From sequence record NC_031928.1: 64,000 bases of DNA. One strand, 5' to 3'. Shown piece after piece: positions 1,460 to 34,545 of this stretch (within the stretch, counting starts at the first letter, position 1; every line of letters begins with the position of its first letter). A program made the position numbers and the translations under genes. The notes under the pieces were generated by a model. The model searched no databases and had not been told where the DNA came from. It saw nothing but the letters and a program-made list of their open reading frames with translations. The stretch comes from Escherichia phage WG01.

Positions 1460-3138
1460 TCCATCACCGTGAATCGTCCAACTTTCTTCATTTGAAGATG
1501 TTGGCCATAAGCTTGTGGGTCATGGTCTCGGTGAGAGATAATGAACACGTTCGTATCCTCAAGGCTATTCAAGATGGTTGCAATGGTCTTAACGCCTTCA
1601 GCGTCAGTAGCACTGTCAAATACCTCATCAAGAATTAACGTGCTGATATTAACACCTGATACCTTAGAAGCAATATCGCGCCATGTAAAAAGTAGTGCGA
1701 TATCAATACGTGCTTTCTCACCCTGTGAAAATGAAGCATAACTAAAGTCTTCACGTCCACGTGATTTAATCGTCTCATTGAACTCTTCGTCTAGTGTAAA
1801 GACGTAGTCCGCTTCCATAATCTTCAAATAAGAATTTATCTGCTTATTAAAGATAGGAATGTATTTCTTAATAATGGAACCTTTAATACCAGTATCCTTC
1901 AACATTTCTGTCAGAATTCCACGATGGTATTTTTCCATTACCAAGGACGATTTGGTAGAGACGATTTTATCAAGCTCTGCTTGAAGCGCGGCAATCTCTT
2001 CGGCATTACTTACGAACTCAGCAGCTGCTTGGTCGATTAATACTTTAACTTTTTTAGCTTTCTCTACGGCAGTAATGGCTTGTTGCTTATGAGTAGCTAT
2101 CTGAGATTTAATAGCCAGAGCTTTATTACGTTGTTCGGTTACTTGGTCCTTAATGAGCTTGAGTTCTTGGTACTGTTCGTTAATCTTATCCAAAGATTTT
2201 TGAAGCTCAAAGTTCTTATCCTTAATTTTAGTAAGGATATTTCCATGCTCTTCCAGTCCTTGCATACATGTAGGACAACTACCACCGGTTTCGTATAATT
2301 TCACGACCTTAGTAAAGGTTGCCATATCATTCTTGATTGCAAATCCTTTATTGCTCAGGTCACTCATAGAGTTGCTAGGGTCATCATCGACGATGACATT
2401 GAGTAATTCATCAGTCAGTTTTTCTATATTGCCCTTCGCAGTCCTGGCTTCTTTAACGAGCTCATCGTACATTGTTTGTAGACGTGCTGCGTTCTCACCT
2501 GATAATTTACGCTGACGTTCTTCGTTGTCATTATAAATTTTAATTTGCTGGATAATAGAATCCTGTTTAACGTCGATTACTTGGATTTGGCTATTAGTCT
2601 CACGAATCAAAGATTTGTTCAACTTGTCCATATCCGCTAATACAGAAACCTCTAAGAGGTCTTCCACAAGCTTTCGGCGCGCAGGGGTCGACAAACCCAT
2701 GAAAGGGGTATACCCTGCTGTACCAAGTACGACAATCTGTTTGAAACTGGTATATGACATTCCGATAAGCTGTTCAAATTCTGCTTGGAAGTCTTTACTG
2801 CTGGCAGATTCATCAAGACGTTCACCGCCACAAGAGATTTCAAAAATATTGGGTTTTTGCCCGCGCTTGATATAGTATTCTTTGCCATCATATTCCATCC
2901 ACAGTTCGACCAAAAGGTCTTTCTTATTACTTGAGTTAATCAACTGCCCTTTCTTAACATCACGAAAAGGCTTACCGAACAGAGCAAATGTAACGGCTTC
3001 AAGGAACGTAGATTTACCAGCGCCGTTTTTACCGGTGACTAAGGTCTTTTGGACCTTATCAAGTTGGATTGTAATAGGTTGCTGGCCTACCGACATAATA
3101 TTTTTATACGTTACTTTCTTTAACTTAAACGTTTTCAT
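1456..3138 (-). CDS. 46: recombination endonuclease subunit gp46 (SbcC/Rad50-like ATPase)
   Basis: 560 aa, same length as T4 gp46; Walker A GKNGAGKST; long coiled-coil middle; C-terminal signature region. Confidence 0.93.
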   Translation of the reverse strand: MKTFKLKKVTYKNIMSVGQQPITIQLDKVQKTLVTGKNGAGKSTFLEAVTFALFGKPFRDVKKGQLINSSNKKDLLVELWMEYDGKEYYIKRGQKPNIFEISCGGERLDESASSKDFQAEFEQLIGMSYTSFKQIVVLGTAGYTPFMGLSTPARRKLVEDLLEVSVLADMDKLNKSLIRETNSQIQVIDVKQDSIIQQIKIYNDNEERQRKLSGENAARLQTMYDELVKEARTAKGNIEKLTDELLNVIVDDDPSNSMSDLSNKGFAIKNDMATFTKVVKLYETGGSCPTCMQGLEEHGNILTKIKDKNFELQKSLDKINEQYQELKLIKDQVTEQRNKALAIKSQIATHKQQAITAVEKAKKVKVLIDQAAAEFVSNAEEIAALQAELDKIVSTKSSLVMEKYHRGILTEMLKDTGIKGSIIKKYIPIFNKQINSYLKIMEADYVFTLDEEFNETIKSRGREDFSYASFSQGEKARIDIALLFTWRDIASKVSGVNISTLILDEVFDSATDAEGVKTIATILNSLEDTNVFIISHRDHDPQAYGQHLQMKKVGRFTVME

Positions 3139-3359
3139 GTATTGTTCTCACGAATTGTTTGTTCAGCATATTCTAGCATTTCTTCGGAAGAAGCAAACAC
3201 GTCGTCAAGTTCCATGGCCCATGAAACACCTTCAGAATATTCAGAAGTGACATACATAGTTCCGGTATACCAAGAACCATCCACGTCCCATTCTACATTA
3301 CCGAACCAGCCATCGCCAATATGAAAATCATGTTTATACATTTTCATCATTATAAGCAT
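3135..3359 (-). CDS. hypothetical protein (74 aa)
   Basis: ATG start; T4 46.1 position. Confidence 0.4.
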   Translation of the reverse strand: MLIMMKMYKHDFHIGDGWFGNVEWDVDGSWYTGTMYVTSEYSEGVSWAMELDDVFASSEEMLEYAEQTIRENNT

Positions 3360-3597
3360 CCTTGATGCATGATTCAGCCATATGAATTAATGTTTCTGGA
3401 GTATCATCTACCATTACATTAAAGCTAAATTCCACAGCCCAATCAGTAGCAACATAAACTTTAATAAGCTCGTTGGTATCGCGAGTGCTCACGGCTTCAA
3501 ACCAGAACTTAATGATATTCGTTTGGTTATCGTCATCAATAACGATGCAGTCGTGTTCTAGTTCAAGGCCTGATTTTTTGAATTCATCTAAAGTCAT
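3334..3597 (-). CDS. hypothetical protein (87 aa)
   Basis: ATG start overlapping gp47 stop; T4 46.2 position. Confidence 0.4.
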   Translation of the reverse strand: MTLDEFKKSGLELEHDCIVIDDDNQTNIIKFWFEAVSTRDTNELIKVYVATDWAVEFSFNVMVDDTPETLIHMAESCIKDAYNDENV

Positions 3598-26903: not shown

Positions 26904-27302
26904 TTATTTATAGGTCTTCATCCAATTCTTGAACAAAGCCGCGACGTCTTTCTCTTTAACGTTCAGTTTAATGTCCAACATTTTACCACCCGCTGCTCTG
27001 GTTTGGCGAATCTTAGCAGTACCGGTTTCGCCATTCCACTCAACATAATACTGTCCAGTGTTCATTGCAATACCATCACCGTAGTCTTCATTTTTAGAAG
27101 TGGTGAATGCTAGCTTCATAGTCTTAGATACACGAGCCTGCATGCCTGTCTGAAGGGCATTACGAACGCGAATAACCTGAGGAGTGGCCTGGGTCAAGTT
27201 CTCATTCAGTTCTTCAGTGAACTCTTCAGATTCAAACATCGCCAAAAGTTCTTTAGATGCAGGAATTACATTCTCTGCGATAAATTCATTATAAGTTTTC
27301 AT
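26904..27302 (-). CDS. internal-protein-like packaged protein (CTS-tagged, 132 aa)
   Basis: N-terminus [10 protein letters not shown]; T4 ipII position. Confidence 0.6.
26905..26912 (-). promoter_or_regulatory. candidate late promoter TATAAATA
   Basis: exact TATAAATA on the minus strand upstream of ipIII, overlapping the upstream stop codon. Confidence 0.4.
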
Positions 27303-28263: not shown

Positions 28264-28492
28264 CGTCTCGTTCCCATGATTGTTTAAAAATATCTTGCAT
28301 AATAATTTGAAGTCTATTTTCTGATGATGGACTTTCACTATCAGACACTTGAAGCATATAGTCACCAATAGGACAGAACATATCCATATCGCTTTCTAAG
28401 TCTTCTTTAATTTTCTCTTCTGATGTTCCGGTATCATAGGAATACAGATAAGAATCACATGACTCAGATTTAATATAAATTGCAATGCTCAT
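28256..28492 (-). CDS. hypothetical acidic protein (78 aa)
   Basis: ATG with AAGGAA RBS lying in the conserved junction motif. Confidence 0.35.
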   Translation of the reverse strand: MSIAIYIKSESCDSYLYSYDTGTSEEKIKEDLESDMDMFCPIGDYMLQVSDSESPSSENRLQIIMQDIFKQSWERDDE

Positions 28493-29076
28493 TTACGGCA
28501 TTCCTTAATAAAAGAGTTTAATGTATTTTTCTTAGTGATATCGTCATATACCTTTTTAACTTTAGAAATACGAAAAGGTACTTCGATAACAGAGGTCCAT
28601 AAAAATGATGCGATAAGACCTAAGATAGCAGCAGACATCGCTGAAGCGAATACACAAATAGGCAGGTCATTATCTGTTGTCAGGAAAAACCCTAGGAGTG
28701 GGAAAAATAATATACCCATCCAAACATAGAATCTAGAACTCACCAATTTGTCGTATTCATCACTCCAGGCACGGAAGCCGTATTTTTTGCTATAACAAAT
28801 CAATGGGTCTGGAGTCTGTTCTTTATATGGTTCCGCTTGCCAGCCGTTTACAATATAGCCCATTTTATATTCCTCAATTAAAAGCTGTTTCATTTCGGCA
28901 GTACAACCTGACCAATCTATTGTACTGGCTGAAATTCCTTCATCACAGTCATCGATATTTCGCCAGGACTTTTTAATAATCATATTCTCACCACTTGGGA
29001 TAATAATTCCAGCATTTTCCGACCGACGGATGAAGTTTGTATCAATACCCATACAACCAGGTTCATAAAGGGCCAT
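28489..29076 (-). CDS. membrane protein with conserved C-terminal FIKEC tail (195 aa)
   Basis: ATG start; two C-terminal TM helices; tail ...NSFIKECRK. Confidence 0.45.
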   Translation of the reverse strand: MALYEPGCMGIDTNFIRRSENAGIIIPSGENMIIKKSWRNIDDCDEGISASTIDWSGCTAEMKQLLIEEYKMGYIVNGWQAEPYKEQTPDPLICYSKKYGFRAWSDEYDKLVSSRFYVWMGILFFPLLGFFLTTDNDLPICVFASAMSAAILGLIASFLWTSVIEVPFRISKVKKVYDDITKKNTLNSFIKECRK

Positions 29077-29762
29077 TACCAGCCCTCCATAGGGAATTCC
29101 AGATATACTTGAGCATTAACGCGGATTTCATTTGTAATCTTTTTAACACGGTCTGTATTACGAGACACACGACCAAACCAGCGCCAACCGTTACTTACTG
29201 CACGAGAACCTGTATGCCATGTCTGCCAATCAAACTGGAGCAACGTGCGGTCAGGAGCATCCCACTTAGTTAATTCATTAGACTCAATTTTTTCCAGAAC
29301 TTCTTTATGCCACTGGCGATAGATAAGTTCGCCTTCAGGAATCTGACTGAACTGGGCAGTTCCGGTTGCAAAATGAGTAGGACACACATCAGCGTTAACA
29401 AGACCAAGAATATGTTCAGAATGGTATCGAGGATTATCATAATCAGGTTGCCCTGCGGTAATAAAGTGTTGACCCACCGGAATATCCGGGCGTGGTACAT
29501 CATCATGGTGGAAGCCTGGAATTGCAGGGTACCAGCCGGGCATTAACATGTGTACACGGGAATCAAATACGCATTCAACGGCTTTCCACTCATCAGGGAG
29601 ATTAGTAATAAAGCTACGAGTAATAGGACCACCATTTTGTGCAGCAAAATTCAAATCACAGTTAAAGAACATAGGCTCGTTTTTAATATCATCATTAGAA
29701 ATATGACCTGCAAAACCACCTACTGCACGAGCTTTAGAATTAAAAGTTTTCGGACCGTTCAT
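29076..29762 (-). CDS. hypothetical protein (228 aa), His/Asp-rich
   Basis: ATG with GAGGA RBS; HHDD...H cluster. Confidence 0.5.
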   Translation of the reverse strand: MNGPKTFNSKARAVGGFAGHISNDDIKNEPMFFNCDLNFAAQNGGPITRSFITNLPDEWKAVECVFDSRVHMLMPGWYPAIPGFHHDDVPRPDIPVGQHFITAGQPDYDNPRYHSEHILGLVNADVCPTHFATGTAQFSQIPEGELIYRQWHKEVLEKIESNELTKWDAPDRTLLQFDWQTWHTGSRAVSNGWRWFGRVSRNTDRVKKITNEIRVNAQVYLEFPMEGW

Positions 29763-29776
29763 AATATTTTCCTCAC

Positions 29777-29989
29777 TTACTTTTTGTTGAAAAAGTACAT
29801 TTTACCTTTAGGAGATAAGGATACACGAAGTGCGTTACCAATACCAACTGAACATTTAACCAGGTCAGCAGATTTCAATTCACCAAATGCTTGACGAAGG
29901 TCACCATCACGAGTGTTAACCATCAGGCATTTAGCACCAGCTGCACGAACTTCGTTTAACATGTTGATTGCTTGGTTAGAAAGTTTCAT
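29777..29989 (-). CDS. hypothetical protein (70 aa)
   Basis: ATG at 29989 with GGAGA RBS; upstream ORF-track codons lie in the promoter. Confidence 0.4.
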   Translation of the reverse strand: MKLSNQAINMLNEVRAAGAKCLMVNTRDGDLRQAFGELKSADLVKCSVGIGNALRVSLSPKGKMYFFNKK

Positions 29990-30015
29990 TTTATTCTCCA
30001 TTTCACTCTGTTGTT

Positions 30016-30056
30016 TTGATAGGTCTATAGTATCACACCTATAGACCTTGTACACT
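30016..30056 (-). promoter_or_regulatory. promoter cassette variant (GTGTACA -35)
   Basis: dyad GGTCTATAG/CTATAGACC around TACTATAGACC. Confidence 0.5.
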
Positions 30057-30067
30057 GTTTTGTGCAA

Positions 30068-31027
30068 TTATTTTTCGAAAGGACGAATTAAATGTTGGTT
30101 ACGCTTAAACCGTTCAATGTAGTCGTTTTCACCTAAAGTCTTGTACATATTAACCACAGCTTGGTAGTTTTCCCATGCATAAGTGCGGAACCAACCTGAA
30201 GTGATTGAGGTGCACACTTTCTCAAGGGCCATATAGAAACTTAATGATGGTGAAATATTGAAGTCATTAGGAACCTGTGAACGTTCTAGTGCCAGGACAC
30301 AAGTTTCTTCATACACACCAGCCAGTTTAATAGCTTCAGGCAAAGCCTCGAACTTCTCACGAGAGGTCATGACTTCAGAACCTTCCTTCATATAAAAGGT
30401 ATATGCAGGGCGCCCTGCCAATGCCACTGCTTCATGGATAGAGTCGTGGTCTAGGGTATAAATGGTATCATTAAAGAACGATGATTTGTTTACATCCAAT
30501 TTAGGGTGGGAATAGCTCAACGTTTCTTTTTGACGTTGCAACATAATTTCCTGGAGTTCTTCGTTAAGGGTGATACCTTTATTACGAAGGTATTTGATGT
30601 GGGACATGGTTTTCAAGAAGAACGGATTATTCTTCAAGAAACGATGGGAGGTTTTGATAGCCAGACAGATATCAGGGGTTGCCCAATAGAAACCTGTAAG
30701 ACGGTCCTTTTTAATATGATTTTCAGCATATTTCAGAAGACGATAACTTGAGGTGAAATCTTCATCTTGGAGCTCACCGGTGATTTCTCGTACGTTAGTC
30801 AGAGCACGAACGATATATGCTTCAAAATAGGTTTCTTTACCGTTGTACATGCATTTAAAAGCCTGGACATCAGGATTATCCACAGGAACATGGGCACCAA
30901 ACATCCGAGCTTTAAAGTGATTCCATGAGCCTTGGTCGGCAATGAAATCCCAATCAGAATTTTCGATATGCTTACTTTCAATCAGACCAGCGTGGTGCAG
31001 TGCACGAGAACCAATAACTAACATCAT
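30068..31027 (-). CDS. hypothetical protein (319 aa)
   Basis: ATG at 31027 with GAGGA RBS; N-terminal VIGSRALHH...SDWDF is only weakly nucleotidyltransferase-like. Confidence 0.45.
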   Translation of the reverse strand: MMLVIGSRALHHAGLIESKHIENSDWDFIADQGSWNHFKARMFGAHVPVDNPDVQAFKCMYNGKETYFEAYIVRALTNVREITGELQDEDFTSSYRLLKYAENHIKKDRLTGFYWATPDICLAIKTSHRFLKNNPFFLKTMSHIKYLRNKGITLNEELQEIMLQRQKETLSYSHPKLDVNKSSFFNDTIYTLDHDSIHEAVALAGRPAYTFYMKEGSEVMTSREKFEALPEAIKLAGVYEETCVLALERSQVPNDFNISPSLSFYMALEKVCTSITSGWFRTYAWENYQAVVNMYKTLGENDYIERFKRNQHLIRPFEK

Positions 31028-31046
31028 AATATTTTCCTCAGTAAAC

Positions 31047-31286
31047 TTAAATTTCAGCGACGTAATCGTTATGCAATTCCCACATATCATCAGAATTATT
31101 CTTAATGATAGGAATTATCTCATTAGAGATTTCTTCAGCATAAGGGTCATTGATACAGTGGGCATCTTCAAAACGAACACCGTAATCAGACTTCTTATAA
31201 GAGAAGCCATAAATCTTTTTAAACTTGGCGCGAGTAATGCGTACCGGTTCATTAGACTTATCGGACATCGGAGCGTAATACCACAT
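31047..31286 (-). CDS. hypothetical protein (79 aa)
   Basis: ATG ORF downstream of a promoter cassette. Confidence 0.4.
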   Translation of the reverse strand: MWYYAPMSDKSNEPVRITRAKFKKIYGFSYKKSDYGVRFEDAHCINDPYAEEISNEIIPIIKNNSDDMWELHNDYVAEI

Positions 31287-31305
31287 ATGTTCTCCTCATG
31301 TTTGT

Positions 31306-31350
31306 GTAGGGTAATAGTAACATGATTTTCTAGAGTTGTACATCACTTCT
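31306..31350 (-). promoter_or_regulatory. promoter cassette variant
   Basis: TGTACA -35-like and TACTAT -10-like with dyad GGGTAATAG. Confidence 0.4.
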
Positions 31351-31680
31351 GCAATATTCTAAAAATAATTTATCATTGTCTACTGTATCCCAACGACGCC
31401 AAGACGGGTTCCAGACCAAAGCGTTGTCACCACAATCATTGAGCTTAAAATGGTCGTAGTACATAGCTATGTGTCTAGTCTCGTCACCAGAGAACCCCAG
31501 TATAGGCTCACCGCGGGTGTGATACATATGATGGTGCATTGAGAGGTCGCATTTGTAAAACATCTCACGTTTACCACGAACGAACAAGAAGGCCTGTCCA
31601 TTCATATAGAATTCTTTATTTGTTTTCAAAAGATATTTGAATACTGAATCTTTATGCATAAGTCCTCCTACCACATCCAT
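31330..31680 (-). CDS. hypothetical protein (116 aa)
   Basis: ATG ORF; His/Cys-rich. Confidence 0.4.
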   Translation of the reverse strand: MDVVGGLMHKDSVFKYLLKTNKEFYMNGQAFLFVRGKREMFYKCDLSMHHHMYHTRGEPILGFSGDETRHIAMYYDHFKLNDCGDNALVWNPSWRRWDTVDNDKLFLEYCRSDVQL

Positions 31681-31689
31681 GTGGTTAAA

Positions 31690-31917
31690 TTATTTTCCTA
31701 ACGAAATACGAGTAGGTTTTTTACCGAAATAGTCTTCATAAGAACCATCTAAACGACCTGCTTTAGACCGACAATATGAATCGTACTTTTTGTAATAAGT
31801 CATCTCAGTATTATAACGCGGGTGTCTATCAGCCATAATAATACTTAACGGCCAACCTTTGGCATAATCGCGAAGACCATTTATTTTACGAATGTATCTT
31901 TTCTTTAATTTTAGCAT
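31690..31917 (-). CDS. hypothetical basic protein (75 aa)
   Basis: ATG overlapping upstream stop. Confidence 0.4.
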   Translation of the reverse strand: MLKLKKRYIRKINGLRDYAKGWPLSIIMADRHPRYNTEMTYYKKYDSYCRSKAGRLDGSYEDYFGKKPTRISLGK

Positions 31918-32135
31918 GAGCTCGGATACCAGATTTTACCATCGGCCTGAGCAACGAAGGTGCGACCAGCTTCTTCGCCATAACACGAGCTATTCAGCCA
32001 ATCTTCGAGACGAACTTCACCGTCATAATCGTCGAGCTCAACACCAAAACTTTGAGCAGAAGCCATATCTTTTACTTTCTTATACAGTGCAGCCAGTTCA
32101 AGTGCAGCTTTTTCTAATTCATTAATATCAGACAT
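31911..32135 (-). CDS. small acidic protein, paralog family member (C-terminal W..SSC)
   Basis: 74 aa; ATG with AAGGTGA RBS; ends WYPSSC. Confidence 0.45.
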   Translation of the reverse strand: MSDINELEKAALELAALYKKVKDMASAQSFGVELDDYDGEVRLEDWLNSSCYGEEAGRTFVAQADGKIWYPSSC

Positions 32136-32146
32136 TTTTTATCACC

Positions 32147-32359
32147 TTAGCAAGACATAGAGGATGTAAACCAGAAACCTTCACCTTCCGGAATACCGTA
32201 GTCATCACGGACCCATTCGTAATCATCATATTCCGGGTTCTTTGGAGAAATGTATTCTCCACGACCAGAAACACGGAACTCTTCACCCGTTTCGTCAGCC
32301 ACAGACTGGCCTTTACGTACTAATTCACGGATTTGGTTTTCAATTTCATCAATAGTCAT
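32147..32359 (-). CDS. small acidic protein, paralog family member
   Basis: 70 aa; ATG with AAGGA RBS; ends FWFTSSMSC. Confidence 0.45.
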   Translation of the reverse strand: MTIDEIENQIRELVRKGQSVADETGEEFRVSGRGEYISPKNPEYDDYEWVRDDYGIPEGEGFWFTSSMSC

Positions 32360-32368
32360 TTTATTTCC

Positions 32369-32650
32369 TTAACATTCAGAAGAAGAGGACACCCAACCAC
32401 CATTTTCTAGGCTGGTAGTGTAATCATGTTGGTTTACAATAGCGTACTGAGCTTCACCGTATTCTTCCCAGTGGGCAAGGTCGGCTTTCAAGGCGCCAGG
32501 AGAATAATAGTCACCGCCCATACCGCGAGCAGGGTATATATTAAAATGAGTCTCATATTTGTTTGCAATTTCCTCGGCACGACGAATAGCTTTATGGATA
32601 TCATTTACTGCTTCAGCCAATTCTTTATTTTTATGGTAATCATTCATCAT
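32369..32650 (-). CDS. small acidic protein, paralog family member
   Basis: 93 aa; ends GGWVSSSSEC. Confidence 0.45.
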   Translation of the reverse strand: MMNDYHKNKELAEAVNDIHKAIRRAEEIANKYETHFNIYPARGMGGDYYSPGALKADLAHWEEYGEAQYAIVNQHDYTTSLENGGWVSSSSEC

Positions 32651-32659
32651 AAAATTTCC

Positions 32660-32950
32660 TTAGCACATTGCCGAAGAGGAGATCCAAGCACCAACTGTAA
32701 CGACGCCATTTTCAACTTCACCACCGTTGTTTTCAATTTCATCTTTAAACCATTGGGAGCATTCATAACCGACAGGATAATATGTACGGCCTGAACCATA
32801 ATCACCAGTACCGAATTGGATACCATACTTATCGGCAATAGCTTCACATTCATGTTCGATGGTATTCACTTTATTCAGAAGAGCATAGATAGCCTTTTCT
32901 GCAGATTTCTCGTCATTGTGTTCCGGGATTTCAATTTCAATTTTATTCAT
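32660..32950 (-). CDS. small acidic protein, paralog family member
   Basis: 96 aa; ends GAWISSSAMC; shares IA.KY..F...YY core with 32369..32650. Confidence 0.45.
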   Translation of the reverse strand: MNKIEIEIPEHNDEKSAEKAIYALLNKVNTIEHECEAIADKYGIQFGTGDYGSGRTYYPVGYECSQWFKDEIENNGGEVENGVVTVGAWISSSAMC

Positions 32951-33300
32951 GATTTACATTCCTTAATAAAGGTTTCAAGGTCATTACGTTTAGTTTGTTT
33001 TACATACTCATTATAATTAGCCATAGCTAAAGCATATCTCTTTTTACGTGGCTTGTTTATTTTATTAGTTTGGGCAATATCAAAGACCCATGGGATAAAA
33101 AATCCTATTAAAGCCGGAACCCAAATCCACGCGAGGCTCATATCTTCAAACGGATGGCGAGGCATACCATTAATAATCCCACCGACAAGAAATCCAATTA
33201 TCCCTGCAGTCATACTAGTAGCAATGCCGAGGAATAATGAAATAGAGATATCGTAATCTGCTAATGCGTAACCAGGGTCGGTTTTACTAGGCTTATGCAT
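32947..33300 (-). CDS. membrane protein with conserved C-terminal FIKEC tail
   Basis: ATG at 33300; two TM helices; tail ...LETFIKECKS. Confidence 0.4.
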   Translation of the reverse strand: MHKPSKTDPGYALADYDISISLFLGIATSMTAGIIGFLVGGIINGMPRHPFEDMSLAWIWVPALIGFFIPWVFDIAQTNKINKPRKKRYALAMANYNEYVKQTKRNDLETFIKECKS

Positions 33301-33829
33301 TTTGAACCTCTTTAGCGTATTCGCGACATTCAGCAATAAAACGATCAAGCTTACGGTGTTGTTTACGACTTTCTAATGTGTACTCATTAGCCAAAATAAT
33401 AAGCTCATCTTTATCGTAATTTTTAATATCAGAGTAAGATGGGCGACGGTCAACCATTCCAAATACATCACCATTTTCTAAAGCTACATAGCATACTAAA
33501 TGGTAATCATCGTCTGCCATATTAAGAAGCACACAATCAGCGCTCTCGTTTAAAGAATATACTGAATAACGTAGTCCAGCGAATTCCACTCGTTGAATAG
33601 CCAGATTTACGTCAATAATTTCCAAAGCATCTTCAAAAGAAAGGTCTTCAGCTAAAGCAAAAATAAAAGGTAATTTGGTAGTATCGCCACGGCTAGATGT
33701 TCTGCTTAAGAAATCGTTTGAATAGCCTAGGTCTTGGCGAATTCTATAAAGAACTGAATTGGTTTCATGGGAAAGACCACTATTTTTAAACCAATCAATA
33801 TTTGATATCAGGTCGTCATATAAACTCAT
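33293..33829 (-). CDS. hypothetical protein (178 aa)
   Basis: ATG with GGAGGAGAGGAG RBS; C-terminal DRFIAECRE resembles the FIKEC tail. Confidence 0.45.
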   Translation of the reverse strand: MSLYDDLISNIDWFKNSGLSHETNSVLYRIRQDLGYSNDFLSRTSSRGDTTKLPFIFALAEDLSFEDALEIIDVNLAIQRVEFAGLRYSVYSLNESADCVLLNMADDDYHLVCYVALENGDVFGMVDRRPSYSDIKNYDKDELIILANEYTLESRKQHRKLDRFIAECREYAKEVQNA

Positions 33830-33877
33830 AATATTCTCCTCTCCTCCAAATAGGGAGACCGAAGTCTCCCGGTAACA

Positions 33878-34471
33878 TTACTTAAGTGAATTAATGTAGT
33901 CTTCGATATCAGCAGAAGTCGTATCCATTCCAACTTGCGGGCCTTTAAACGTTTCTACGCGCATCAGGGTGTCTTCGATATCAATCTTGGTCAGTGCAGC
34001 AATTTCAACAACATCGTCGGCAGTAGCAATACCAAGGGCAGCCATATTACGAGTTTCACGGATGTACTCGAGCTTAACAGCCAGTTCCTGACGAGAGTCA
34101 TCAAGTTCCTTAACCTTCAGTTTAATTTCATTACGCATTTCGATATAATCATCGGCTTTCTTACGAAGCTGGGTAGCTGTACGACGATAAAGGAGGCCAA
34201 GTTTAGCATGTACCTGGACATCAGCGCCTTCGGCAATCAGTTTACGAATTTCACGTTCTTTAGAAGCAGCGAGCTGGTCTTTTTCATTAGCCAATGCACG
34301 AATACGTTTTTCTTCATTCACAGACTTAACATGAGCAGTCTGGAGTTCAGTGATTTTATCAATCAGAGTAGAAGCAGCTTTGGTGTATTGGTCTTCGATT
34401 GACAGGTTCTGAGCCATTGCGGTGCCCAGTTTAGAACGAATGAATTCAACGATTTTCTTTAAAGTGTTCAT
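33878..34471 (-). CDS. coiled-coil protein (197 aa)
   Basis: ATG at 34471 with GAAGGA RBS; upstream ORF-track codons lie in the promoter. Confidence 0.45.
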
Positions 34472-34500: not shown

Positions 34501-34545
34501 TAATCCATGAGGACATTATACCCTGTCCTCTGAGGTTTGTAAACA
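34501..34545 (-). promoter_or_regulatory. T4-type early promoter with stem-loop
   Basis: minus strand GTTTACA, 17 nt, TATAAT; dyad GAGGACA/TGTCCTC. Confidence 0.6.

Follow-up and report, generated by a model that had tools for sequence, protein, structure and literature searches.

A conserved C-terminal peptide shared by otherwise unrelated proteins encoded downstream of gene e.6 in T4-type phages

A short peptide with the core F-[I/V]-x-x-C-[R/K] was found at the C-termini of otherwise unrelated, apparently early proteins whose genes closely follow e.6 in T4-type (Straboviridae) phages, with two to six such proteins per genome. The analysis concerns a 64,000-nucleotide stretch of Escherichia phage WG01 (NC_031928.1), called the window here, in which three minus-strand open reading frames (ORFs), 28489..29076, 32947..33300 and 33293..33829, had been noted to share a ...FIKEC(R/K) ending. 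This tail is a peptide module under strong purifying selection, restricted to the C-termini of proteins from one gene block. We favour reading it as a short docking motif for one common partner, for which the product of e.6 is put forward tentatively. Many different bodies with one invariant, predicted cytoplasmic tail and one invariant neighbour, e.6, would thus give the long-standing T4 'hypotheticals' e.2–e.5 and dozens of ORFans in related phages their first common denominator.

The tail is confined to proteins encoded between e.6 and the lysozyme gene

The distribution of the tail was determined in 37 e.6-bearing loci, namely the window, three annotated phage regions and 33 IMG/VR loci, by considering plus-strand ORFs of at least 50 amino acids. 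Retrieval from IMG/VR anchored on e.6 had yielded 34 loci with 10-kb flanks, and that anchored on e.2 just 10. The strict motif, F[IV]xxC[RK] within the last 22 residues, was found as the C-terminal tail of 118 ORFs and at 0 internal sites in 178,027 residues, and 117 of these 118 tails lay between e.6 and the lysozyme gene (Fisher p 4e-60), 2–5 per locus. With a relaxed motif, 152 of 159 matches were inside this block, representing 143 unique proteins that BLASTP, run after removal of the tails, divided into 28 families. A gene was assigned to the tail set when it stands between e.6 and the lysozyme gene e and its product carries [F/W][I/V/L]xx[C/V/I/A][R/K] in the last 22 residues with a hydrophobic residue (PHI) at position −3.

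The bodies that carry the tail were then compared by profile–profile alignment, all against all. When the tails were removed, only 2 of 378 family pairs reached an hhalign probability of at least 80%. That the tails are just the terminal part of a single recognisable paralogous domain was rejected on this result. Among the 69 pairs with E<1e-2, the tails themselves were in register in 59, a result that is partly circular because the families had been selected by the motif. Nineteen families have one or two transmembrane (TM) segments and a K/R-rich linker of 19–78 residues (19–44 in the two-TM families), and nine are soluble, among them every e.5-position protein. Most members of the tail set are small two-TM inner-membrane proteins with the module ~20–45 residues beyond TM2, the rest being soluble. 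Because of the K/R-rich linker after TM2 (positive-inside rule), and because the soluble members lack a signal peptide, the tail is predicted to be cytoplasmic.

A family-weighted profile of the 28 families, with F as position 0, displayed K at −10, an acidic residue, S or N at −4, L/F/I at −3, E at −2, F (25/28) or W at 0, I (23) or V/L at +1, variable residues at +2 and +3 with K and E the commonest, C (22) or V/I/A at +4, and R (25) or K at +5. The general module is (acidic)-PHI-x-x-[F/W]-[I/V/L]-x-x-[C, rarely V/I/A/S/M]-[R/K], followed by 0–15 residues to the C-terminus in the 28 families and by 28 in RB43. On a position-specific scoring matrix (PSSM) of the tail, true tails scored at least 11.7 bits (median 22), and degenerate members such as ...AFLKEMRK and ...DFVMEMRK were picked up as well. 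A capsid-targeting sequence (CTS) was rejected as an identity for the tail, the motif being C-terminal and the CTS N-terminal, and the CTSs of internal proteins scoring 8–12 bits against the at least 11.7 of true tails. The best off-target matches of the PSSM, at 8–16 bits, were the CTS of internal head proteins, MKTYxEFI[AT]EA[RK], and the Nudix box of NudE, EAA[VI]RECREETGF, located at 26904..27302 (−) in the window and in internal-protein genes of the IMG/VR loci L016–L043; this resemblance is probably a coincidence.

The conserved residues of the tail are encoded with free synonymous variation, with codon counts of TTT 95/TTC 41 for Phe, ATT 83/ATC 19/ATA 10 for Ile, TGT 71/TGC 53 for Cys, and AGA 50/CGT 35/AGG 21/CGC 12/CGA 9/CGG 1 for Arg, which indicates selection at the level of the peptide. 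In each of the five largest families the tail was more conserved than the body, and in the orthologue alignment of the 117-residue protein encoded at 32947..33300, YNEY.KQT..N.LETFIKECKS was almost invariant and the TM region fell to 50% identity. A functionally important cytoplasmic tail had been one of two explanations offered in the original prediction, and it gained support, since no other part of each family is as well conserved and since the tail is kept on about 28 unrelated bodies and across genera.

The tail in T4 and in other genera

In the syntenic regions of RB51 (Tequatrovirus), PhAPEC2 (Mosigvirus) and Klebsiella phage KLB31 (Kanagawavirus), the motif ends e.2, e.3 and e.5. The e.2, e.3 and e.5 proteins of T4 carry the strict motif too, and e.4 has a degenerate version with a shifted Cys. 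The T4/RB51 endings are ...FITECRKLK for e.2, ...FV[SI]DCRKIK for e.3, ...FVKESRCKSQ[NS] for e.4 and ...FVKECREYVK... for e.5, and those of RB51 read ...LNNFITECRKLK (e.2), ...MEEFVSDCRKIK (e.3), ...IMKFVKESRCKSQN (e.4) and ...LEKFVKECREYVKTITIPSK (e.5). The window thus shares with T4 both these endings and the block order e.6-...-e.2-nudE-e; it differs in that the inserted genes of the Dhakavirus block are absent from T4 and that the body of the e.5-position protein is not detectably homologous.

Each Straboviridae e.6 locus examined had a tail gene directly downstream of e.6, even in altered contexts. Aeromonas phage 31 encodes e.6 and one tail gene (...ELFVDYCRRTASKK), placed between nrdD/49 and 47/46/45; the e.6 locus of Aeromonas phage ZPAH1 has three tail genes, and a metagenomic contig with e.6 has five. 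At the e.6 locus of RB43 the tail, LEKFIHSCKK, is the one that stops 28 residues short of the C-terminus.

The T4 genes e.2–e.5 are known as 'hypothetical' or predicted membrane proteins (msp7–msp4 in the 1993 record); as far as found, they have neither an annotated function nor an annotated shared motif, and no Pfam or NCBIfam matches. Full-text literature searches returned nothing relevant on a shared motif, on functions of T4 e.2–e.6 or on a phage-encoded PspA, and the shared tail of this set is apparently undescribed. Two irregularities of e.2 were also seen. In the T4 record L13089 (1993, msp1–msp8; 2927..3410), e.2/msp7 is annotated as 102 amino acids, and the part with the TM segments and the tail (...NLNNFITECRKLK*) can be read in another frame up to nudE, which points to a frameshift in this old record. 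In one T4-like IMG/VR locus (L025), e.2 is absent altogether.

Four tail genes in the window

A 5.8-kb region of the window is 92–98% identical to the Dhakavirus genomes of Shigella phage PSD9 and Escherichia phages Bp7, IME08, QL01 and MX01, and by sequence the window is a Dhakavirus, a JS98/Bp7-like T4-type coliphage. The block genes of this region all lie on the minus strand and run, in T4 nomenclature, from e.6 through a 178-amino-acid (aa) gene, a 117-aa gene, four small paralogues and several RB69-type ORFs to e.2, 3′ of which are a 78-aa gene, nudE and the lysozyme gene e. Four window genes fall under the tail-set definition: 28489..29076, 31330..31680, 32947..33300 and 33293..33829. 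The three genes noted originally all carry the tail, including the endings NSFIKECRK (28489..29076) and ETFIKECKS (32947..33300), and they were the only ORFs of the window in which the pattern first searched for was found near the C-terminus; 31330..31680 had been missed and was added by a looser scan. The initial description of the carriers as membrane proteins holds for two of the three, with a TM hairpin predicted to end 32–37 residues before the motif, and fails for the 178-aa protein, which has no TM segment, as is the case in 9 of the 28 families; the fourth, 116-aa protein has none either. The three proteins of the original observation map to three separate PHROGs, 2203 ('membrane protein', e.2), 2330 and 8788, and gave zero matches in Pfam and NCBIfam.

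The gene at 28489..29076 (−) encodes a 195-aa protein with an N-terminal domain, a TM hairpin at ~116–156, a basic linker and the tail ...TLNSFIKECRK, in which F I K E C R is encoded by TTT ATT AAG GAA TGC CGT at 28495..28512 (−). It matched phrog_2203 with E 1.4e-69 over residues 32–195 and is annotated as e.2 in Bp7/IME08; judged by this full-length profile match and its syntenic place upstream of nudE/e, it belongs to the T4 e.2 family. A tblastn search with it reached the e.2 of Tequatrovirus at ~30% identity that runs through the last residue, and in precomputed Pfam annotation PF26896 is present on all its close homologues. The protein begins with a 31-residue N-terminal extension (MALYEPGCMG..., 28984..29076 (−)) that is kept among homologues, YEPGCMG being nearly invariant; JS10 and VR7 annotate a shorter e.2 of 164 aa, and the PHROG profile begins at residue 32.

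The 117-aa protein encoded at 32947..33300 (−) has TM segments at 22–40 and 55–73, a basic linker (KINKPRKKR...) and the tail ...DLETFIKECKS, with F I K E C K encoded by TTT ATT AAG GAA TGT AAA at 32953..32970 (−). It matched phrog_2330 (E 1e-43), and BLASTP of the body grouped it with e.3 of RB51 and PhAPEC2; profile, body similarity and the two predicted TM segments identify it as a T4 e.3-type two-TM protein. The TM region of this family (alignment columns ~20–85) occurs in two very different allelic forms among close Dhakavirus/Gaprivervirus relatives, with the N-terminal 20 and C-terminal 30 residues alike across both forms; the patch looks mosaic, which suggests recombination or diversifying selection on the TM hairpin.

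Directly downstream of e.6, in the e.5 position, the gene at 33293..33829 (−) encodes the soluble 178-aa protein (phrog_8788), whose tail, ...LDRFIAECREYAKEVQNA, continues for 9 residues past the motif. Its C-terminus reads ...DRFIAECREYAKEVQNA, with the DNA TTTATTGCTGAATG encoding FIAEC and REYAKEVQNA following; the motif F I A E C R is encoded by TTT ATT GCT GAA TGT CGC at 33323..33340 (−). The gene is syntenic with e.5 of T4/RB51, and the bodies of the two proteins are not homologous by the methods used, falling into separate BLAST families (3 and 4) with an hhalign probability below 80%. Common to both are only the location immediately 3′ of e.6 and the tail ...F[IV]xECREY[AV]K..., and Pfam gave zero matches for ten e.5-position proteins. 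The fourth tail gene, 31330..31680 (−), encodes a soluble protein of 109–116 aa (family 6) that ends in ...DNDKLFLEYCRSDVQL (...KLFLEYCRSDVQL), and its motif is encoded by TTT TTA GAA TAT TGC AGA at 31348–31365 (−). It is the positional equivalent of gene 143 of Klebsiella phage KLB31, which ends in ...LDAFIQMCRRNQNVSS.

Tail codons often carry the Shine–Dalgarno sequence of the next gene

That the DNA encoding the tail also carries the ribosome-binding site of the next gene had been claimed for the window; this proved correct and extends across loci. At two junctions, AAGGAA is followed after 8 nt by the next ATG, which overlaps the stop codon as ATGA. The AAGGAA in the e.2 tail is the Shine–Dalgarno sequence (SD) of the 78-aa gene, whose ATG at 28492–28490 overlaps the TGA stop (overlap 28489–28492), and that in the tail of the 117-aa protein is the SD of a 96-aa gene, whose ATG at 32950–32948 overlaps the TGA stop (overlap 32947–32950). 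Junctions were classed as coupled when the preceding ORF contains an SD-like purine run 5–10 nt before the following start codon and its stop overlaps that start. By their sequence, both junctions are of this translationally coupled type. At the junction from the 178-aa to the 117-aa gene, the SD AAAGAGG lies 3′ of the motif within the C-terminal extension, and the motif codons have no SD role.

Throughout the block, tail genes are chained by overlapping or abutting stop and start codons, with the SD in tail codons 7–9 nt before the next start, and the codons that supply it vary with the length of the tail. When one residue follows C-R, the two variable codons are AAG GAA, GAG GAA, AAA GGA/GGG, AAA GAG or AGG AGC; when three follow, 17 of 22 genes use AGG for Arg (TGC AGG AAA...), a codon that is rare in the other classes; and when four follow, GCG AGG AAA occurs in addition. 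The SD-likeness of the x-x window was higher in short-tail than in long-tail families, with a borderline family-level test (p 0.054). The need for a downstream SD thus dictates K-E and K-G in part. The residues F, I/V, C and R do not encode the SD and persist in tails with 5–15 residues after C-R, where the SD lies elsewhere. Coupling of this kind, with an SD in the upstream ORF and an ATGA overlap, is common in T4 operons, and it accounts for K-E, K-G and AGG but not for the conserved F, I/V, C and R. The tail is accordingly a clean natural case of dual coding, in which six codons serve a peptide motif and, via AGG or AAG-GAA, the next SD.

The repeated 14-mer is explained at the peptide level

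The exact 14-mer TTTATTAAGGAATG occurs twice in the window, at 28499–28512 (−) and 32957–32970 (−), and encodes F-I-K-E-C in both places. With up to 2 mismatches, 5 matches were found against 1.7 expected, and 3 of 100 shuffles reached 5; as DNA alone, the 14-mer is not significant. When the surroundings of the two copies were aligned, as had been suggested, the flanking DNA was not alike, and the peptide similarity did reach beyond the 14-mer: a BLASTP alignment of e.2 with the 117-aa protein covered 18 residues, 10 of them identical, and extended upstream, and a looser match took in the 178-aa protein. A likeness confined to the 14-mer, which the original prediction had named as the outcome that would refute it, was thus not what the comparison showed. 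In related phages the exact 14-mer was limited to the lineage of the window, most relatives of its e.2 having FIEECRK (GAG GAA) in place of FIKECRK. The longest exact match between tail DNAs within a genome was usually 5–7 nt (250 pairs; mode 5–6 nt), and matches of 14–15 nt were seen only in the window and two near-identical genomes (L016 and L023). The repeat is therefore a coincidence, within one lineage, of two tails that agree in peptide, in length and in how they supply the SD.

These observations bear on two readings in which the peptide is incidental. According to the second explanation of the original prediction, a junction element with a few codons of coding context has been copied between genes as a recombination or translational-coupling cassette, and the shared residues are its by-product. 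The exact 14-nt repeat at two junctions, the identical SD spacing and the ATGA overlap would agree with this, and T4-type hyperplastic regions are known to shuffle modules; the tail block resembles such shuffling cassettes in that it lies in a plastic early region rich in insertions and that a repeat is found where genes meet. It differs from them in that the tail repeat has no extended DNA identity, promoter or stem-loop, and that the peptide is conserved and not the DNA. The two copies are identical over no more than 14 nt, other codons encode the motif in the third and fourth tails of the window, and GAG GAA in the e.2 of close relatives shows that the repeat is not conserved. The synonymous variation of the four conserved residues, the short matches within genomes, the motif in tails whose SD lies elsewhere and the 3 of 100 shuffles that equal the observed count add to this. 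On the unlike flanks, the codon tables and the longest-match statistics, the cassette was rejected and is considered very improbable. Still further from plausible is that the tail reflects chance and composition, with K-E set by the SD and the remainder coincidental. The SD indeed explains K-E and K-G at x-x in short tails, and F, I, K and E are common in an AT-rich phage, but coincidence would leave the 118 C-terminal against 0 internal occurrences, the conserved residues that encode no SD and the conservation across genera without a cause, and this reading is given practically no weight.

e.6, the constant neighbour of the tail genes

The e.6 homologue of the window, a 197-aa protein predicted to form an all-helical hairpin, is encoded at 33878..34471 (−), directly upstream of the tail genes, and is the candidate partner. 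Across loci e.6 is much better conserved than the tail carriers. At ~200 aa, it is predicted to consist of an N-terminal helix, a long hairpin of helices and short helices at the C-terminal end, and its best Foldseek matches in the PDB were Vipp1/PspA. Profile-level searches gave no such relation. Pfam and NCBIfam had no match to e.6 at E≤0.1, two PDB profile searches returned no PspA/Vipp1 at E≤10, and an hhalign bridge from e.6 to PspA yielded nothing significant; HMMER against 1.84 billion representatives found 46 matches, all of them e.6-like proteins of ~200 aa or fragments. Membership of e.6 in the PspA/IM30/ESCRT-III group by sequence profile (PspA_IM30, Snf7) was rejected on these results. 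The C-terminus of e.6 (~33881..33913 (−)) reads A-D-[IV]-x-[ED]-Y-[IL]-x-S-L-K, with the spacing of the tail, and scores only −4 to +6 bits on the tail PSSM, a weak match.

A docking motif as the favoured reading, and its alternatives

We consider it somewhat more likely than not, at roughly 0.55, that the tail is a short helical docking motif for one partner common to all carriers. On the cytoplasmic side of the membrane, such a tail would bring different protein bodies to that partner. The hydrophobic positions −3, 0, +1 and +4 are compatible with one helical face, and in the AlphaFold2 model of e.2 TM2 continues as one helix (140–194) through the tail, at low confidence. A precedent for the principle is found in the T4 proteins gp43, gp33 and gp55, which share C-termini that bind the sliding clamp gp45. 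There, too, a short conserved C-terminal peptide is carried by otherwise unrelated proteins of one phage, and these peptides offer a model of how the tail may work; they differ in having another sequence, and the carriers of the tail are mostly membrane proteins from one gene block with a putative partner. The leading candidate for the partner is e.6, an assignment that we regard as possible but less likely than the docking function itself. If it holds, e.6, possibly a PspA/Vipp1/ESCRT-III-like protein, would have the two-TM proteins as its membrane anchors or regulators.

Several points weigh against this picture. What suggests e.6 as the partner is gene adjacency, and tandem duplication by itself would likewise keep paralogues next to each other and to e.6. 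The loci were sampled by means of e.6 and thus come from e.6-bearing phages only, and in Ackermannviridae an e.6-like protein (21–30% identity) is followed by a membrane protein that has no tail. The tail exceeds shuffled sequences in hydrophobic moment by a modest margin only (mean z 0.5), and the e.2 model has a predicted local distance difference test score (pLDDT) of 58, with 52–56 over the tail and an N-terminal domain unusable for fold search. A near-invariant Cys is also unusual for a purely hydrophobic contact, and chemistry outside the docking model may be involved.

A larger proposal, which we hold to be doubtful, is that T4-type phages encode their own PspA/Vipp1 (ESCRT-III-like) membrane-maintenance system, with e.6 as the polymerising effector and the tail as its docking peptide. 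The effectors PspA, Vipp1 (IM30) and LiaH work with small membrane partners such as PspB/PspC and LiaI (PMC8281802, PMC11237479). The phage block would be comparable in the size and helical layout of e.6 and in the small TM proteins with predicted cytoplasmic C-terminal tails that follow it, and it differs in lacking sequence-level membership; homology of the tail proteins to PspC or LiaI-LiaF-TM was rejected because they had no Pfam or NCBIfam match. In such a system the tail might mimic the C-terminal helix of e.6 (...D-[IV]-x-[ED]-Y-[IL]-x-S-L-K), and fast-evolving two-TM anchors and soluble regulators (e.2–e.5 and many ORFans) might set where and when e.6 acts at the host inner membrane. 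By analogy, then, the tail resembles hub-binding C-terminal peptides in mechanism and, provided that e.6 is PspA-like, the PspA/LiaH systems with their membrane partners. Were e.6 both the partner and PspA/ESCRT-III-like, a classic model phage would carry a membrane-remodelling or repair module with exchangeable adaptors; in any case, a hyperplastic region that resisted annotation becomes a directly testable system.

Two alternatives leave the tail a binding peptide and change what it binds. The tail could be a signal read by a host machine, such as a protease, an adaptor, a complex associated with the membrane or a sensor for defence or stress, through which the phage delivers, hides or destabilises its proteins via one hub. 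Many T4 early proteins act on host factors, the tail genes appear to be early and non-structural from a promoter-like site and the T4 annotation, and a modular tail on unrelated bodies is what such a signal would look like. The same motif nevertheless serves phages of Escherichia, Klebsiella, Serratia and Aeromonas, which would require a host target that is very conserved, a host signal gives no reason for the tight linkage to e.6, and the distance of 0–15 residues (28 in RB43) to the C-terminus does not fit recognition of the terminal carboxylate; a terminal degron or carboxylate-reading motif of the ssrA or PDZ type was rejected for this reason. A host-directed signal therefore seems unlikely to us, and we rate slightly lower the possibility that tails bind each other, as homo- or hetero-oligomeric helix bundles with Cys as an intermolecular metal site or redox-sensitive link. 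Such assembly would draw on the Cys kept beside a basic residue in 22 of 28 families, on co-encoding and translational coupling that favour stoichiometric co-expression, and on the lack of Cys in e.6. It has to contend with a number of Cys tails that ranges from 1 (Aeromonas phage 31) to 5, with the replacement of Cys by V/I/A/S/M in several families that retain F, I and R, with a hydrophobic stretch (~8 residues) too short for a stable coiled coil and with the reducing cytoplasm. A site for the gp21 prohead protease ([L/I]-x-E) was a further candidate; E stands at +3 in only ~8 of 28 families, which does not fit an I-x-E site, and it was rejected.

Signals around e.6 and a second C-terminal signature

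Upstream of e.6, a sigma-70-like promoter, TTTACA-17-TATAAT, is predicted at 34515..34543 (−) from an 11/12 match to the consensus. Between e.6 and the 178-aa gene, the sequence GGGAGAC-UUCG-GUCUCCC at 33853..33870 (−) would form a hairpin and is followed by UAUUU; 3′ of it lies a very strong SD of the 178-aa gene, GGAGGAGAGGAG, at 33836–33847 (−). In the T4 record L13089, −35/−10 signals are annotated upstream of e.6/msp3, and a stem-loop is annotated at the same place after e.6. Promoter, hairpin and strong SD together would fit an abundant e.6 with less abundant partners. The SD GGAGGAGAGGAG contains three GGAG motifs, GGAG being the kind of site that the RegB endoribonuclease cuts, and regB is encoded nearby in related phages.

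A second C-terminal signature is interleaved with the tail genes. Four small soluble proteins of phrog_899, encoded at 32660..32950, 32369..32650, 32147..32359 and 31911..32135 (−), end in G-W-[VI]-S-S-S-x-x-C or ...W-x-[PS]-S-S-C with Cys as the last residue (AWISSSAMC, GWVSSSSEC, FWFTSSMSC and IWYPSSC). This signature is present in 0–5 copies per genome, with none in the Tequatrovirus loci, and 120 of its 124 occurrences lie at most 6 kb downstream of e.6.

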